Positions 1 to 24,232 of a stretch of 39,594 bases of DNA are shown piece after piece (positions within the stretch are counted from its first letter, which is position 1; every line of letters begins with the position of its first letter). The stretch lies in assembly GCA_017353855.1 (NCBI GenBank), contig JAFMSA010000001.1, positions 1 through 39,594 of the forward strand. The letters run 5' to 3'. Origin of the DNA: Alphaproteobacteria bacterium (GTDB taxonomy: Bacteria > Pseudomonadota > Alphaproteobacteria > ATCC43930 > CGMCC-115725). A program made the translations under genes and the position numbers. Under the pieces are notes generated by a model. The model was not told where the DNA came from and did not search any database. It was given only the letters and a program-made list of their open reading frames with translations.

Positions 1-541
1 ACGGACGCTCGCCGCGCATGCGGCGAGCGTCGCGGTCCATCACATCGAGACTGGCTCCGACCAGCGGGGCAAGATCGATTTTGTTGATGACGAGGAGATC
101 GGAGCGGGTGATGCCGGGGCCGCCTTTGCGCGGAATCTTGTCACCGGCCGCAACATCGATCACGTAGATCGTGAGATCTGCGAGCTCGGGAGAGAAGGTG
201 GCGGCAAGATTGTCGCCGCCCGACTCGATCAGCACCAGATCGAGATGCGCGAACAGCCGGCTCATTTCCGCGACGGCGGCAAGATTTATCGAGGCGTCTT
301 CGCGGATCGCGGTGTGCGGGCATCCGCCGGTCTCGACGCCGCGGATCCGTTCCGGCGGCAACGCGCCGCTTTTCGTCAGGAATTCGGCATCCTCGCGTGT
401 GTAAATGTCGTTGGTGATCACGGCGAGCTCGTATCGGCCGCGCATTGTCTTGCACAGCCAATCCATCAGCGCGGTCTTCCCCGACCCGACCGGGCCGCCG
501 ATGCCGACCCGCAGCGGATTGCTGATTGGCCTTTCGGTCAT
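1..541 (-). CDS. ureG: urease accessory GTPase UreG (3' end cut by window edge)
   Basis: Absent from the ORF track because it runs off the window. My translation from the ATG at 541 gives [73 protein letters not shown], with P-loop and NKxD motifs. The ATG overlaps the ureF stop (ATGA). Confidence 0.93.
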
Positions 542-1728: not shown

Positions 1729-3438
1729 TCAGTAGAGGAAATAGCGCTGCGCCAGTGGCAGAACGCTCGCCGGCTCGCAGCTCAGATGCACTCCGTCGGC
1801 ACGCACCTCGTAGGTCTCCGGGTCGACCTCGATAGATGGGGTCGCGTTGTTGTGAACCATGCGGCTTTTGTCAATCGCGCGGATGCCGCGTGCCGGTAGC
1901 ACGGTGCGCTGCAAACCGAGCACCTGCGGTATTCCGCGTTCGATCGCCAGGCTCGGCAGAAACGTGACTGCCGAGGCCGGCAATGCGCGCCCGAAGGCGC
2001 CGAACATCGGGCGGTAATGGACCGGCTGCGGTGTCGGGATCGAAGCGTTGGGGTCGCCCATCAGTGCCGCAGCGATTGTGCCCGCCTTCAATACCATATC
2101 CGGCTTGACGCCAAAGAAAGCGGGTGACCACAGACAAAGATCGGCGAGCTTGCCGACTTCGACCGAGCCGACATGCTCGGCCAGGCCATGGGTCAGCGCC
2201 GGGTTGATCGTATATTTGGCAATATAGCGCTTGACCCGGAAATTATCGGCGCGGTCGCCGTCTTCGGCGAGCCGGCCGCGCTGCTGCTTCATCTTGTCGG
2301 CGGTCTGCCAGGTGCGGATGATCACTTCGCCGACCCGACCCATCGCCTGGCTGTCCGAAGACATCATGCTGAAGGCACCAAGGTCGTGCAGGATGTCCTC
2401 GGCGGCAATCGTCTCTCGGCGGATGCGGCTCTCGGCGAACGCGACGTCCTCGGGTAAGCGCGGATCGAGGTGATGACACACCATGAGCATGTCGAGATGC
2501 TCGTCGACCGTGTTGACCGTAAAGGGCCGCGTCGGGTTGGTTGACGACGGCAGCACGTTCGGCAACCCGCATAATTTGATGATATCGGGGGCGTGACCGC
2601 CCCCCGCCCCCTCGGTATGAAACGCGTGAATATTGCGCCCCTTGAATGCCGCGATCGTATTTTCGACAAAACCCGATTCGTTGAGGGTGTCGGTGTGGAT
2701 CGCGACCGCAATGTCGAGCTGTTCGGCAACTCCGAGACAGGTGTCGATCGCTGCCGGGGTCGTGCCCCAATCCTCGTGCAGCTTCAGCCCGCAGGCGCCG
2801 GCCTCGATCATCTCGACCAAGGCGCGCGGATCGGCGGCATTGCCTTTGCCGAATAACCCAAGATTGACCGGCAGTCCTTCGGCCGCCTGCAGTATGCGGC
2901 CCAGATGCCACGGACCCGGCGTGCAGGTCGTTGCGGCGGTGCCGGCAGCCGGTCCGGTGCCGCCGCCGAGCATTGTCGTAATCCCGCTATAGAGCGCCTC
3001 CTCGACGAGCTGCGGACAGATGAAATGAATGTGCGAGTCGATGCCTCCGGCAGTGAGGATCCGGTTTTCGCCGGCAATCGCCTCGGTTCCCGGCCCGATC
3101 ACAATGTCGACACCCGGCTGGATATCGGGATTGCCGGCCTTGCCAATGCCGCTGATCCGGCCGTCACGGATCCCGATATCGGCCTTGACGATGCCCCAAT
3201 AGTCCAGGATTACGGCATTGGTGATGACGGTATCGACGGCGCCCTCGGCGCGGGTCGCGCTGCCTTGCCCCATTCCGTCGCGGATGACCTTGCCGCCGCC
3301 GAATTTGACCTCTTCGCCATAGATCGTGCGGTCGCTCTCGATCTCGATAACGAGTTCGGTATCAGCTAAACGCACCCGATCGCCGGTGGTCGGGCCGAAC
3401 ATCGCGGCATAGGCACCGCGCGGGATCATCGTCGCCAT
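1729..3438 (-). CDS. ureC: urease alpha subunit UreC
   Basis: 569 aa with hallmark urease alpha motifs ([27 protein letters not shown]). Confidence 0.98.
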
Positions 3439-3759: not shown

Positions 3760-4062
3760 TTACCGGATCGGCTCGTGCACGGTAACGAGCTTGGTCCCGT
3801 CCGGAAAGGTCGCCTCGACCTGAATTTCGCGGATCATCTCCGGCACTCCCTCCATGACTTGCGCCCGTTTGATGATCGTAGCCCCGTCCCGCATCAGCTC
3901 CGCCACACTCTTGCCGTCGCGCGCGCCCTCGAGCACGTAGTCGGTAATCAGTGCGACCGCTTCGGGATAGTTGAGCTTGACGCCGCGCCTGAGCCGCCGC
4001 TCGGCGACCATCGCGGCGACCGCCACGAGGAGCTTGTCTTTCTCGCGCGGGGTCAGGTTCAT
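3760..4062 (-). CDS. ureA: urease gamma subunit UreA
   Basis: 100 aa, [12 protein letters not shown]...[11 protein letters not shown], typical of UreA. A GAGGA Shine-Dalgarno lies 9 nt upstream. Confidence 0.96.
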
Positions 4063-4148
4063 CGAAAAAAATCCTCGGCTCGCAAACCCCCGCCTTTAGG
4101 CCGGCGAGGAGCGCCGCTCCCGCAGCGCGGGTGACGGCACTGATCCCT

Positions 4149-4377
4149 GGCCCTCACGGACCCCGGTGGCAGGTGGCACAACACCCCCCTCCTCTTCCCC
4201 ATGTTGCCGAGCAGCGGTCGAGCAAGCCCCCGCTCGTACCTATCTCGGGGTTTGTCTGCCGCTTGTCTTCAAGAGGTCCGAACTGAGGAGGCATCCGGAC
4301 GTTGGTCTTGAACTGCTCGGTCAACGTCGTCTCCGGTCTCCCTTCGATTTGGGCCGGTGACCCTCGGGCTTCCGCCC
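4149..4377 (-). repeat. paralogous structured intergenic element, copy 1 (candidate cis-acting/ncRNA, minus sense)
   Basis: Colinear with 23045-23281, sharing blocks ctcggtcaacg, gtctccggt and gggcttccg. No frame is conserved. Minus-sense hairpins are GGUCC[GUGA]GGGCC (4149-4162) and GGGC[GGAA]GCCC (4366-4377). Confidence 0.65.
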
Positions 4378-4879
4378 TCACATCGAAAGCCCTCCCTTCA
4401 GGGCCCTTAAGGGAGGGGATGGGTTACGTTTTTTCACGGCCCTCTCTCTTTCGCCGCCGGGCGGACGGTGATGGGCCCACCAGCGGCGTGCGTCTGCTGA
4501 CCGCCCGGCCTGTACCAAGATGCGTCCGAAGCCGATGGCCTGAGCAACACACCTTACACCAGTCTGAGCGATCCTTTTCTAAAACTCAGCAACGCTGAAC
4601 GGGCGACAATCAAAATCGCACGGGCGGTCATCACGACCAAACGCGCAAAAGGCCTGGCGCTATACCGACGAGCGAAAATCGGCAATAAGAGCAGAGCTCC
4701 CCGTTTCGATATCCGCGATCCAAGAGTGCGCCAATTTCGCTGCCGCAATGCTGCAGTGAGCATCAGCTGTGGGAATGCGGCGTGCTCGGCGGCGAGGTGT
4801 AACGCTTCGCGTCCCCGTGCTGGCGCTCGCTCCACAGCCTTGTTCGGCGAGGCGTAAGTATCGCCAATCGCGTGGCCGG

Positions 4880-5704
4880 CTAGAAATGCCAACTGCGCGG
4901 CAGATGCGACGGCAATCCCAGCGCGGCCGAGCGGAAACGGCTGGCGAGGTCGGCGTACGCTCGACGCAAAGCAGCAGTATCGTAGGCCAGCCAGCGGGCA
5001 ATTACCAAGCCGGCGACCGTCGTCACCCCGGCGCGGATAACTGCCGGGTCGGACGGCCGGATGGCGGGGGCAGCGCCAAGAAACCCCTGCGGGCACTCGT
5101 GCGGCGGGGACAATATCATTGATGCAAATGCGGCCGCGCCGTCGAAACAGGCGGGGTCATCAATGAGGCGCGCCACGTCGTCCTCGAGGTGCAACGCGTC
5201 CCCCCAAATGAGCTTGCCATTGCGCCGCACCTGCCAGACCTCGCGCACAAACCCGTGGGTGAGGCGCTCGCCCCGGGCCCGCCGCCCAAAGACCACAATG
5301 TCGCCGCCGAGAAACCCCGAAGCCGGACCGAGCTCAACGACGGTCTGGCGGTTGAGACGGGCCCCGTCGAACAGGATCGTTTCGAGCGGCAGGAATTCGA
5401 TAATGGCGCGCGCGTCGACCGACAGAAATTGGGAGATCGTCGTTGTCCGGCCGGTCGACCGGTAAACTTTTTCGGCCGCCGAAGACGTGATGTGCGCCGC
5501 AGTGTCCGCCTCGGCCCGTACAGCAATGTCGAGACGATCACCGGCGACGAGCCCGCCGGATGTCGTAACGATCATCGCGAGCGGCGGATCGCCTGCGCCG
5601 GTCGTCGGGAACATGACGCGCAGCGGATCGCGCTGATAAAGATGCGTCAGCCGGGTGACGCCGCCGTCTCGCGCAAAGCCGATTTCGGCAATTCCCTCGG
5701 TCAA
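4880..5704 (-). CDS. ureD: urease accessory protein UreD/UreH
   Basis: 274 aa, UreD-like (LTHLYQRDPLRVMFP...TTSGGLVAGD). The start is TTG at 5704, overlapping the ggt stop (TTGA). Confidence 0.85.
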   Translation of the reverse strand: MTEGIAEIGFARDGGVTRLTHLYQRDPLRVMFPTTGAGDPPLAMIVTTSGGLVAGDRLDIAVRAEADTAAHITSSAAEKVYRSTGRTTTISQFLSVDARAIIEFLPLETILFDGARLNRQTVVELGPASGFLGGDIVVFGRRARGERLTHGFVREVWQVRRNGKLIWGDALHLEDDVARLIDDPACFDGAAAFASMILSPPHECPQGFLGAAPAIRPSDPAVIRAGVTTVAGLVIARWLAYDTAALRRAYADLASRFRSAALGLPSHLPRSWHF

Positions 5705-21848: not shown

Positions 21849-22898
21849 TCAGTGCGGCGGTGCGGCCACACCGCCGCGAACTTCGTGGACGACGACGCCC
21901 GACAGCCGCGGAGGCGGTGCCAGCCAGCGGGGGTGCGCGAGGCTCGTTCCAATATCGCTTTCTCCGGCTCTCCACCGACGCGCAACGGCGGCAGACGAGA
22001 AATCGGCCATTTTGGCCGCCAAATCCATCGAGTTTCCCTCATGCACAAGACGCAGGATCGTCATCGTCGCACTCGTGGCTTCGCAGAGACATCGGCGAAT
22101 GTCGACATCGCTTCTCAGGCTGGCCGGCAGGCGTTCACCGAGCACCGCGATCCGGCGACGCAGATCGTAGGTGCGGCGCATCGCGGCAATTTCCCGCGCG
22201 GTGCGGCTGATCCCGCCATTGACACCGGGGAGCGGATCATAGCCGTCGATCGCAAAGCACAGTGTATCGGCCGGTCGCGCTTCGTCGAGCGCGCAAACCG
22301 GCAAAGCCGCGCCCCCGAAGAGGTGATGATCGATCATCACCGGCGCCAACCCTGGTACCGGGCTGCCTGCCAATACGTGATCGGGACCGAGAACGTGCCG
22401 ATCGTTGTCGAAGAATGTTTCGGCTCCCGACGCCAGGTTCACCGCCCCGAACACGACCCTGACTGCGCCCGAATTGATCTGCTCGAAATTGACGGTCTTG
22501 CTGATCAAAACCCGCAATTCGGCGGCGGAAAGCACAGGCTCGTCATCCCGCAGCAACATTGCCGGCCAGCGCCGGCGGCCCGCGAAAAAACGCGCCAATG
22601 CCGATTTTCCTGATCGGCTCCACCCTCGGGCACCGCCCGAGCGATCGGCAATCCGCCTGCTGAACTCCTGCCAGAACTGGCGCAGTCGCTGCACTCGTTC
22701 GTGCGGGAGGTTCCCCGCGATGATGGCGGCGTTGATCGCACCGATAGCGGTGGCGGCTATCCAGTTCGGGCGAACGCCGCACTTCTCCAGAGCCGCACAG
22801 GCTCCCGCCTGATACGCTCCCAGCGCTCCGCCCCCCGACAATACCAACGCAATCCGTTCGAAACGGGCCAAGTTCTTCTCGGGTCGCCCTCGCGCCAC
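21849..22898 (-). CDS. patatin-like phospholipase family protein (DUF3734-type), catalytic dyad lost
   Basis: GGGALGAYQAG oxyanion motif and a family-typical C-terminus. GXSXG reads A-T-A-I-G (22740-22754) and DGG reads F-G-G (F194, 22317-22319). Confidence 0.85.
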   Translation of the reverse strand: MARGRPEKNLARFERIALVLSGGGALGAYQAGACAALEKCGVRPNWIAATAIGAINAAIIAGNLPHERVQRLRQFWQEFSRRIADRSGGARGWSRSGKSALARFFAGRRRWPAMLLRDDEPVLSAAELRVLISKTVNFEQINSGAVRVVFGAVNLASGAETFFDNDRHVLGPDHVLAGSPVPGLAPVMIDHHLFGGAALPVCALDEARPADTLCFAIDGYDPLPGVNGGISRTAREIAAMRRTYDLRRRIAVLGERLPASLRSDVDIRRCLCEATSATMTILRLVHEGNSMDLAAKMADFSSAAVARRWRAGESDIGTSLAHPRWLAPPPRLSGVVVHEVRGGVAAPPH

Positions 22899-23044
22899 GA
22901 CTAGCTCTCCGCCACCGAGCCGCCTACCAGCAAGTGCTGCATCGCGTCAATCCAACGAACACCCATCGCGTGTGTTTCCGGGGTGGATACGCCGGCCTTT
23001 CAGGTCCGGGCAGGAGCCCGTCGCACGGACGAGGGGGGCTTTCC

Positions 23045-23281
23045 GGGTCCTTACGGACCCGCGTGACGGGAAGCTTTCGCTTCCGCTCCCCTCACCAATG
23101 TCAACCGGCAGCATTTCGGACAAGCCCGCTTCATCCCCACCCCAGGGGTTGTCTGCAGCCTGTCCTTCGAGAGGTCGGGACTGGGCAAGCCCCCCAAAGT
23201 CGGTCTTTGAGCTTCTCGGTCAACGCAGTCTCCGGTTTCCTTTCGACTTAGGGGGTCTGGCATGGGCTTCCGAAAAAGCCC
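23045..23281 (-). repeat. paralogous structured intergenic element, copy 2 (candidate cis-acting/ncRNA, minus sense)
   Basis: Colinear with 4149-4377. Minus-sense hairpins are GGGUCC[GUAA]GGACCC (23045-23060), GGAAGC[GAAA]GCUUCC (23069-23084) and GGGCUUU[UUCG]GAAGCCC (23264-23281). Confidence 0.65.
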
Positions 23282-23389
23282 CCGGCCTGAGCTGTGGGAA
23301 CTGCTTACGCGCTGCCCGGGAGACTTTCGCCCCTGCAGGCTCGTCATCATAGGGGGTCCGGCCCCCGCGTCCAATCCTGAAAGCTGTTC

Positions 23390-24232
23390 TCATCGGCCCT
23401 TCTTTTGCGTGCGGATAGCAGGAAGGGATTTGAGATAAGCAGCAATCGCGCGGCGGTCGGCATCATCGAGCCGAGAGGTGTTACGCACAATTTCAGCCAT
23501 CGCGCCCCCAACGAAATCGAACTCGGGAGTTTGCCCGTCCTTCAGCACATTGATGATATCCTGCTGGCTCCATTTCCCAATCCCGGTCTCCCGATCAGGA
23601 GTGATGTTCGGCACGACTTTGCCCCCGGGGCCGGCCGAGGCGCCGGCTAATCGGCGCCGGGGATCGGGTGCGCCGAAGATGTTGCGCGGCGTATGGCAAT
23701 CCTCACAACGGCCGACCGTGGCGACGAGGTAGGCGCCGCGGTTCCAAGCGGCGTCTCGAGACGGGTCGGCCAGCCACGGACCGGGAAAACGCCCGGCAAT
23801 TGCGGCTATCGCAGCCTTCGCCCGCCCTGCCGACAGGATGCCCGGCCCGCCGCTGCGGTTGACCGCCCGGACCGCCGGAACACTGTCCAAAAAGGCTTTC
23901 AAGTCCGCAAGGTCGGCGTCGGTCAGCCGATTGTAAAAGCGAAACGGAAAAGCCGGCAAATAGTGAGAATCGTCGGGAGCGATGCCCCAGCGCAGTGCGC
24001 GGACAAAATCGGCAAACCGCCAGCGGCCGATGCCCGTCTCCCGGTCGGGTGTGATATTCGGCGGGAAGATGACGCCGAACGCCGTTTCGAGCGGCCGCCC
24101 GCCCGCATAAGCCTTGCCGCCTCCCTTTGCGTCGGTGTGGCACTGGTCACAGCCGGCCGCGGCCGCGAGATACGCGCCGTGCGTTACCGCATCGGCACCG
24201 GGCGCACCCGCGGCCGGGGCGGCGCCCAGCAT
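23390..24232 (-). CDS. diheme c-type cytochrome
   Basis: Two CXXCH motifs (CDQCH, CEDCH), each followed by the repeated NITPDRETGIG(R/K)W module. The first canonical start (ATG 24232) falls inside the apparent signal peptide (see findings). Confidence 0.85.
   Translation of the reverse strand: MLGAAPAAGAPGADAVTHGAYLAAAAGCDQCHTDAKGGGKAYAGGRPLETAFGVIFPPNITPDRETGIGRWRFADFVRALRWGIAPDDSHYLPAFPFRFYNRLTDADLADLKAFLDSVPAVRAVNRSGGPGILSAGRAKAAIAAIAGRFPGPWLADPSRDAAWNRGAYLVATVGRCEDCHTPRNIFGAPDPRRRLAGASAGPGGKVVPNITPDRETGIGKWSQQDIINVLKDGQTPEFDFVGGAMAEIVRNTSRLDDADRRAIAAYLKSLPAIRTQKKGR

Follow-up and report, generated by a model that had tools for sequence, protein, structure and literature searches.

HEARO (Rfam RF02033) is described as an RNA located upstream of HNH-endonuclease (IscB) genes, and is now called the IscB omega RNA. 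The guide of an IscB omega RNA lies immediately 5' of the scaffold and is taken from the flank. The ISC transposons, reported from Cyanobacteria and Proteobacteria, have 5'-GT/CG-3' termini, insert at N|ATGA without target duplication and are mobilised in trans by a Y1 transposase, and the copies of active ISC families are 96-98% identical (Kapitonov, Makarova, Koonin 2016). That paper describes the ATGA target and does not mention start codons. Protein-less IS200/IS605 derivatives that encode omega RNAs have already been described as well, in a report that also presents RF02033 as a model without the downstream hairpins (Meers et al. 2023).

We analysed a 39.6-kb stretch of alphaproteobacterial DNA, hereafter the window, in which a first-pass annotation made from the sequence alone had reported two homologous segments in the same orientation, one of them between ureD and ureABC, at 4149-4377 and 23045-23281. 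It had considered them unclassified and possibly a new riboswitch or leader. We find instead that both segments match HEARO from end to end, and we put the probability at roughly 85% that, in identity and origin, both copies are divergent omega RNAs of IscB-type transposons without the nuclease gene.

When E-value thresholds were used, Rfam HEARO matched both copies on the minus strand over the full model (positions 1-211), copy 1 at 4427..4178 with 38.0 bits (E 4e-6) and copy 2 at 23308..23080 with 42.3 bits (E 2.4e-7). Both scores are under the HEARO gathering score of 83 bits, and at gathering thresholds there was no Rfam match on either copy. The first-pass annotation had named significant similarity to a known Rfam family as evidence against a new element, and such a match was in substance obtained, at E ~1e-6 to 1e-7 and below gathering. 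The gathering threshold fails to reach this divergent branch; likewise, Meers et al. (2023) point out that RF02033 misses the downstream hairpins. The hairpins absent from RF02033 are the two 3' hairpins seen here, GGUCC[GUGA]GGGCC included, and true HEARO loci carry the same two extra 3' hairpins ahead of iscB.

A covariance model, R1 (262 positions, 63 pairs), was built without the window, using 18 omega RNAs found in other genomes, most of the 18 having an IscB ORF downstream. R1 matched the copy 1 scaffold (4150..4427, minus strand) over positions 1-262 with 87.2 bits (E ~1e-24) and the copy 2 scaffold (23047..23308, minus strand) over its full length with 106.1 bits (E ~3e-30); the scan of all 39.6 kb gave no third match, in agreement with the earlier count of two copies. 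A sequence HMM from the same 18 non-window omega RNAs matched the window at E=4e-20 and 1e-16 with nhmmer. As the window-free HMM and R1 both match strongly, we regard the homology of both copies to IscB omega RNA, judged by sequence comparison, as not in doubt.

The relatives in other genomes agree in context. Comparison of the copies with plasmids by blastn returned only three partial matches, all in Cupriavidus; the three sites are true HEARO RNAs (114-124 bits), and directly 3' of each lies a 467-aa ORF homologous to IscB by tblastn, the one in locus L002 being annotated as iscB. Twenty more loci, found by scanning one genome per species for a conserved core pattern, belong to Burkholderiales, deltaproteobacterial MAGs, Acidobacteriota and a planctomycete, with iscB immediately 3' in most of them. 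Separately, the Cupriavidus basilensis plasmid of L002 carries an unrelated guanidine-I riboswitch (33-150, minus strand, 84 bits) about 2.7 kb from its IscB element.

Compared with RF02033, the window copies share the strand logic, the order of helices (first stem, two 5' hairpins, pseudoknot strands, central multi-helix domain) and the conserved AAGACC...ACCUCUYGAA and GCAGACAA blocks of the central domain. They differ in scoring 38-42 bits, where the gathering score is 83, in having no iscB ORF after the RNA, in the first stem of their subfamily, which is of the GUAAGC/GCUUAC type instead of GUCAAC/GUUGAC, and in the 5' hairpin of copy 1, which is enlarged by 16 nt.

When the minus strands were aligned globally, 186/257 aligned positions, or 72%, were identical between the two scaffolds (4150-4427 vs 23047-23308; z=15 against shuffles), and the whole elements are likewise 72% identical; with an identity this low, neither copy is a recent transposition product. 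The longest ungapped repeat (4308-4353 vs 23207-23252) is 83% identical. The identical blocks listed earlier, ctcggtcaacg (4316/23215), gtctccggt and gggcttccg, were recovered in both copies, as were the minus-strand hairpins GGUCC[GUGA]GGGCC (4149-4162) and GGGUCC[GUAA]GGACCC (23045-23060), and the description of the segments as homologous, minus-strand structured RNA and not CDS stood. Their limits had been drawn too narrowly and are in fact 4063-4427 and 22967-23308. Homology of the two copies begins at 4427/23308 (5'-GUAA...), and their 3' segments, the next 80-87 nt down to 4063/22967, are similar at z=4.5-4.7 against shuffles, whereas the 100-nt flanks on both sides are unlike (z=-0.5 and 1.1).

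Copy 1 is accordingly placed at 4063..4427 on the minus strand (365 nt, 5'-GUAACC... to ...UUUUUCG-3'), limits at which similarity to copy 2 starts and stops; its 5' end at 4427 lines up with the GUCAAC at which iscB-linked omega RNAs begin, and its 3' end at 4063 with the 3' terminus of full-length elements. By the same tests copy 2 occupies 22967..23308 on the minus strand (342 nt, 5'-GUAAGC... to ...ACACGCG-3'). It is homology, and no clean empty site, that defines these boundaries. Copy 1 has a 3' tail exceeding the consensus by 8 nt, and its final 17 nt, GCCGAGGAUUUUUUUCG, directly before the ureA ATG, look like a native ribosome-binding region; its 3' limit could sit about 17 nt further in. 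We prefer 4063 because both copies then end in CG|ATG, at 27 and 25 nt from the hairpin.

The RNA fold of the family received strong support from an alignment of 26 sequences to R1. Standard pairs fill 96.8% of the pair cells, a value that fitting to the model favours, and 37 of the 63 pairs covary with changes on both sides; when the partners were slid by 1-3 columns as a control, pairing fell to 25-48%. Copy 1 keeps 53/57 and copy 2 52/59 of the consensus pairs, so that the window copies stand at 88-93% against 95-100% in 23 other members, with the exception of the ORF-less L007 (84%). Relative to the family majority, 19-22 pairs are altered on both sides in the window copies, and 21-24 of the 99 positions that are invariant across 19 full-length non-window members have changed. 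Between copy 1 and copy 2, 14 pairs have changed at both bases and a further 10 at a single base, all of them still paired. The structure-preserving changes proposed earlier for the hairpins were confirmed. In copy 2, three of the seven pairs of the first stem are broken; we read this, the 16-nt expansion in copy 1 and the altered invariant positions as signs of wear. Single-sequence folding was not significantly better than that of shuffled sequences (z=-1.8 and -1.25). Because so many differences between the copies are compensatory, most of their divergence arose under structural constraint, a pattern that does not distinguish divergence before the loss of iscB from divergence after it.

For both copies the iscB ORF expected immediately downstream is absent, and ureA and a patatin-like gene stand there instead. 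Comparison of Cupriavidus IscB with the window by tblastn gave no IscB-like coding remnant (best E=1.1), and a Pfam scan of the 40 window ORFs found housekeeping genes only and no transposase, with neither iscB nor tnpA in the 39.6 kb. About 14 codons in the copy 1 junction resemble the IscB C-terminus (ALSLTGLKADV).

The transposon ends have been retained. In full-length elements the last iscB codons overlap a conserved terminus, ...GCGCUAUCCCUCCCCGGCCUGAAGGCCGAGGUUUCUCGCGCAAACUG|AUGA, beyond which the flanks diverge. This conserved 3' end of full-length ISC transposons was found about 80 nt 3' of each scaffold, 35-44 nt past the last omega RNA hairpin (a junction of 44 nt in copy 1 and of 35 nt in copy 2), where it reads GCGCUCCUCGCCGGCCUAAAGGCGGGGGUUUGCGAGCCGAGGAUUUUUUUCG|AUGAAC in copy 1 and GGGCUCCUGCCCGGACCUGAAAGGCCGGCGUAUCCACCCCGGAAACACACGCG|AUGGGU in copy 2. 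The 3' segments of both copies align with the 3' terminus of the full-length elements and of the ORF-less L005, ending in GATG[A/G], and GT/CG termini are present in both, as GUAACC...UUCG (4427..4063) and GUAAGC...CGCG (23308..22967). The 3' subterminal hairpin of copy 1, CCGGCC-UAAA-GGCGGG (4089..4104, minus strand), aligns with CCGGCC-UGAA-GGCCG of the full-length elements; that of copy 2, CCCGGACC-UGAAA-GGCCGG (22992..23010, minus strand), was located in the alignment of 3' ends. In full-length elements the 5' and 3' hairpins are nearly one sequence, CCCCGGCCU(A/G)AAGGCCG. With nhmmer the 3' hairpin of copy 1 was also weakly matched by the 5' hairpin, and the copy's own 5' hairpin is no longer like its 3' hairpin. 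At locus L001 the omega RNA 5' hairpin CCCCGGCAUAAAGGCCGGAG (2927-2946) similarly resembles the transposon 3' subterminal hairpin CCCCGGCCUGAAGGCCGAGG (4557-4576), and one hairpin motif may double as a transposase-binding DNA hairpin and an RNA helix.

The copies thus share with the ISC transposons of Kapitonov et al. (2016) the GT...CG termini, insertion 5' of ATGA, the lack of a duplication and the 3' subterminal hairpin; they differ in being 342-365 bp long without iscB, against ~1.6-1.9 kb, and in the ATGG of copy 2. From these sequence features we conclude that both are protein-less, internally deleted ISC derivatives of the IS200/IS605 superfamily, and PATE-like. In the available part of Meers et al. 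(2023), PATEs likewise consist of transposon ends and a guide-RNA gene with no protein, so that any activity would need TnpA and a nuclease in trans; the trans nuclease named there is TnpB, whereas the window copies are IscB-type, divergent and probably old. The deletion junctions of the two copies are not significantly similar (p=0.66 and z=0.4), and a common ORF-less ancestor is for that reason unproven.

The steps by which an iscB element decays are represented in other genomes: L006 retains about 55 N-terminal and about 85 C-terminal iscB codons, and in L005 and L010 the ORF is gone while the omega RNA and the terminus next to ATGA are kept. ORF-less copies recur elsewhere, several of them within one deltaproteobacterial MAG. 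The subfamily of the window is rare in the collections searched, its pattern CCGGAGACNNCGTTGACCGAG...AAGACC having no match in the genome contigs and a single match in the metagenome collection, the truncated copy L024. This only other member found (2470-2760, minus strand) comprises the 5' half of an omega RNA, in which the GUAAGC/GCUUAC first stem is perfect; it breaks off after AAGACCGACGUCC, beyond which lies unrelated sequence ending in ...CAUUG|AUGA, the AUGA being what we take to be the start of a putative RuvA-like gene (MIAQLTGHL...).

Among the 3' ends of the IscB elements compared (L002, L006, L009, L010, L012, L013, L016, L019, L020 and L021, with window 4059-4063), the target ATG in most cases doubles as the start codon of a real host gene. 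Host genes confirmed by Pfam at such targets encode DctQ, an amidohydrolase, a response regulator, a PyrR-like phosphoribosyltransferase, an aspartate carbamoyltransferase and TssK. The iscB stop overlaps the target ATG (UGAUGA), and with such an overlap translation of the host gene could be coupled to that of iscB. In three genera (L012, L021, L016) the elements lie at the start codons of genes that look like members of the pyrimidine pathway: pyrR-like, pyrB and an amidohydrolase that is dihydroorotase-like by its N-terminus. Two Paraburkholderia species (L004, L012) share one element together with its upstream flank, which looks like a retained orthologous insertion.

In the window, copy 1 sits at an ATGA target (4059..4062, minus strand) that reads ...UUUCG|AUGAAC, and the ATG at 4062-4060 is the start codon of ureA, whose product matches Pfam Urease_gamma over residues 1-99. 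The target of copy 2 is the variant ATGG (22963..22966, minus strand), a variant also found in L012, and lies 65 nt upstream of the patatin-like gene. Neither copy shows a target duplication or any likeness of its flanks. On the same strand, copy 1 has ureD (5704..4880) and ureA (4062..3760) as neighbours, and copy 2 a dihaem cytochrome c gene (24232..23390) and the patatin-like gene (22898..21849). A 21-codon ORF, MGVRWIDAMQHLLVGGSVAES (22901-22966, minus strand), starts at the copy 2 ATGG and ends 2 nt before the GTG of the patatin-like gene (22898); it could be due to chance or be a coupling leader. Upstream of copy 2, a weak sigma-70-like site (23346-23373, minus strand; TGGACG-16 nt-TATGAT, 9/12 matches) lies 38 nt from the 5' end; RNA initiated there could have a short leader containing the would-be guide.

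The gap between ureD and ureA in the window is 817 nt (4063-4879), as had been stated earlier. Three relatives whose UreD is about 70% identical (the best UreD match is 72%) have the same GGT-ureD-ureA order with a ureD-ureA gap of 15-16 nt and no element; in two of them the junction reads, as DNA, ...TGA tgctcgaaggtcttcg ATGAAC and ...TGA tgcgaagggggctgg ATGAAC. This short gap is consistent with insertion of copy 1 but does not amount to a clean empty site. The window also holds 452 extra nt (4428-4879) between ureD and copy 1 that are missing in the relatives with the 16-nt gap, and this segment has no clear ORF and no Rfam match. Within it, a weakly conserved block of about 65 nt (4567-4631) is 74% identical to the longer ureD-downstream spacer of two further relatives, L025 and L026 (E ~5e-6 when just these two spacers are compared, 4e-4 when all fetched loci are). 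Neither nhmmer nor R1 found a copy of the element in the gaps downstream of ureD in L025 and L026. The sequence GAGGA lies within the 3' end of copy 1 at 4072-4076, 9 nt before the ureA ATG, and by its position the copy 1 remnant is predicted to provide the ribosome-binding region of ureA now. There is no terminator between copy 1 and ureA, and a promoter/terminator scan gave nothing near copy 1. The only above-gathering Rfam match of the window is to 5_ureB_sRNA (RF02514, 91 bits) at 2997-3286 on the plus strand, antisense to the 5' part of ureC; conservation of the urease coding sequence probably accounts for this match, which is then not evidence of an sRNA.

Each copy consists of a 5' terminus with a complete omega RNA scaffold, a short junction where iscB used to be, and the conserved 3' terminus. 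Starting from the homology, fold, termini, target sites and absence of iscB documented above, we infer the following about activity. The element would have moved as single-stranded DNA by the action of TnpA (Y1) in trans and inserted just 5' of ATGA/ATGG without duplication, copy 1 precisely at the start codon of ureA and copy 2 at ATGG. Read-through from ureD or the cytochrome c gene would then fuse 16 nt of flank to the scaffold. By position only, following the known architecture, the candidate guides are the 16 nt 5' of each scaffold, AGGGCCGUGAAAAAAC for copy 1 (4428..4443, minus strand) and GUCUCCCGGGCAGCGC for copy 2 (23309..23324, minus strand). Flank and scaffold together would guide an IscB from another source to the empty site left after excision; the nuclease would cut there, and recombination would restore the element. 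The target-adjacent motif would be the ATGA/ATGG at the empty site, and the predicted targets are AGGGCCGTGAAAAAAC followed by ATGAAC and GTCTCCCGGGCAGCGC followed by ATGGGT. Read-through is the likeliest source of any such RNA, since no terminator precedes ureA and just a weak promoter-like site precedes copy 2.

Other explanations of the repeated segments have to be weighed against a transposon origin. The sub-gathering Rfam scores and the weak single-sequence folding z-scores might suggest a chance resemblance, or a generic GC-rich, REP-like intergenic repeat with no relation to IscB. The copies do resemble REP/MITE repeats in being short, non-coding, repeated and intergenic, but their internal 260-280 nt form a specific covarying RNA fold and not a simple palindrome. 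The copies follow the model in colinear order through 262 positions, the pseudoknot-forming strands and the two 3' hairpins among them, and the window-free HMM (E=1e-16 to 4e-20) and R1 (E ~1e-24 to 1e-30) refute such a reading, which we hold to have a negligible probability. An sRNA was also considered and rejected. A new cis-acting leader or riboswitch-like RNA for ureABC, possibly an exapted omega RNA, would accord with copy 1 lying in sense orientation directly 5' of ureA, with no terminator in between and with GAGGA inside its 3' end 9 nt before the ATG. The second copy, however, precedes the unrelated patatin-like gene, the ureA of relatives follows a 15-16 nt spacer without the element, no riboswitch family in Rfam matches, the element is not consistently associated with one gene class, and the family is otherwise found upstream of iscB. 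Homology to a transposon explains the sequence from end to end. The unrelated downstream genes, the absence of the element from the ureD-ureA junction of relatives and the ISC ends argue against a urease-specific leader, and we rate the leader explanation as highly improbable. The copies are a known kind of mobile-element remnant and not a new class or a riboswitch.

Whether a transposon-derived element is still at work is a closer matter. The same element could belong to a TnpA-mobilised, protein-less lineage that parasitises full-length ISC elements, with an IscB from another place in the genome loading its omega RNA. Although the copies have diverged by 28%, their fold remains 88-93% intact and shows 14 compensatory pair differences; both ends are kept in both copies, which are alike in architecture (junctions of 44 vs 35 nt, 3' tails of 27 vs 25 nt); and ORF-less copies recur in other genomes, several in one deltaproteobacterial MAG. 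Meers et al. (2023) argue, moreover, that omega-RNA-bearing PATEs must act in trans. Against continued activity stand the absence of iscB and tnpA from the 39.6-kb window, the damaged guide-adjacent first stem of copy 2, the 5' hairpin of copy 1 that is unlike the 3' hairpin, junction segments without significant similarity, and copies far from identical, unlike those of active ISC families (96-98%). Such an active lineage is a possibility that we consider doubtful, and it is to the same degree doubtful that both copies still serve an IscB in trans. We lean towards both copies being old, now immobile relics that are merely carried in host transcripts, a reading favoured by the 72% identity, the damaged first stem of copy 2 and the unlike 5' and 3' hairpins of copy 1.

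A candidate new riboswitch is replaced by an annotation of two divergent orphan omega RNAs that the Rfam threshold missed. They offer a clean example of IscB elements decaying to a guide RNA only, with intermediates in other genomes. The urease operon of the window is predicted to be read through a 365-nt transposon remnant. If an IscB is encoded elsewhere in the genome, the copies would be natural test cases for the use of omega RNA in trans. It is unlikely that protein-less IscB-type elements form a long-lived, diversifying lineage of their own, with the omega RNA fold under selection and the IscB of others exploited; were that true, landing on start codons would make the 3' end of the element the working 5' UTR of genes like ureA.
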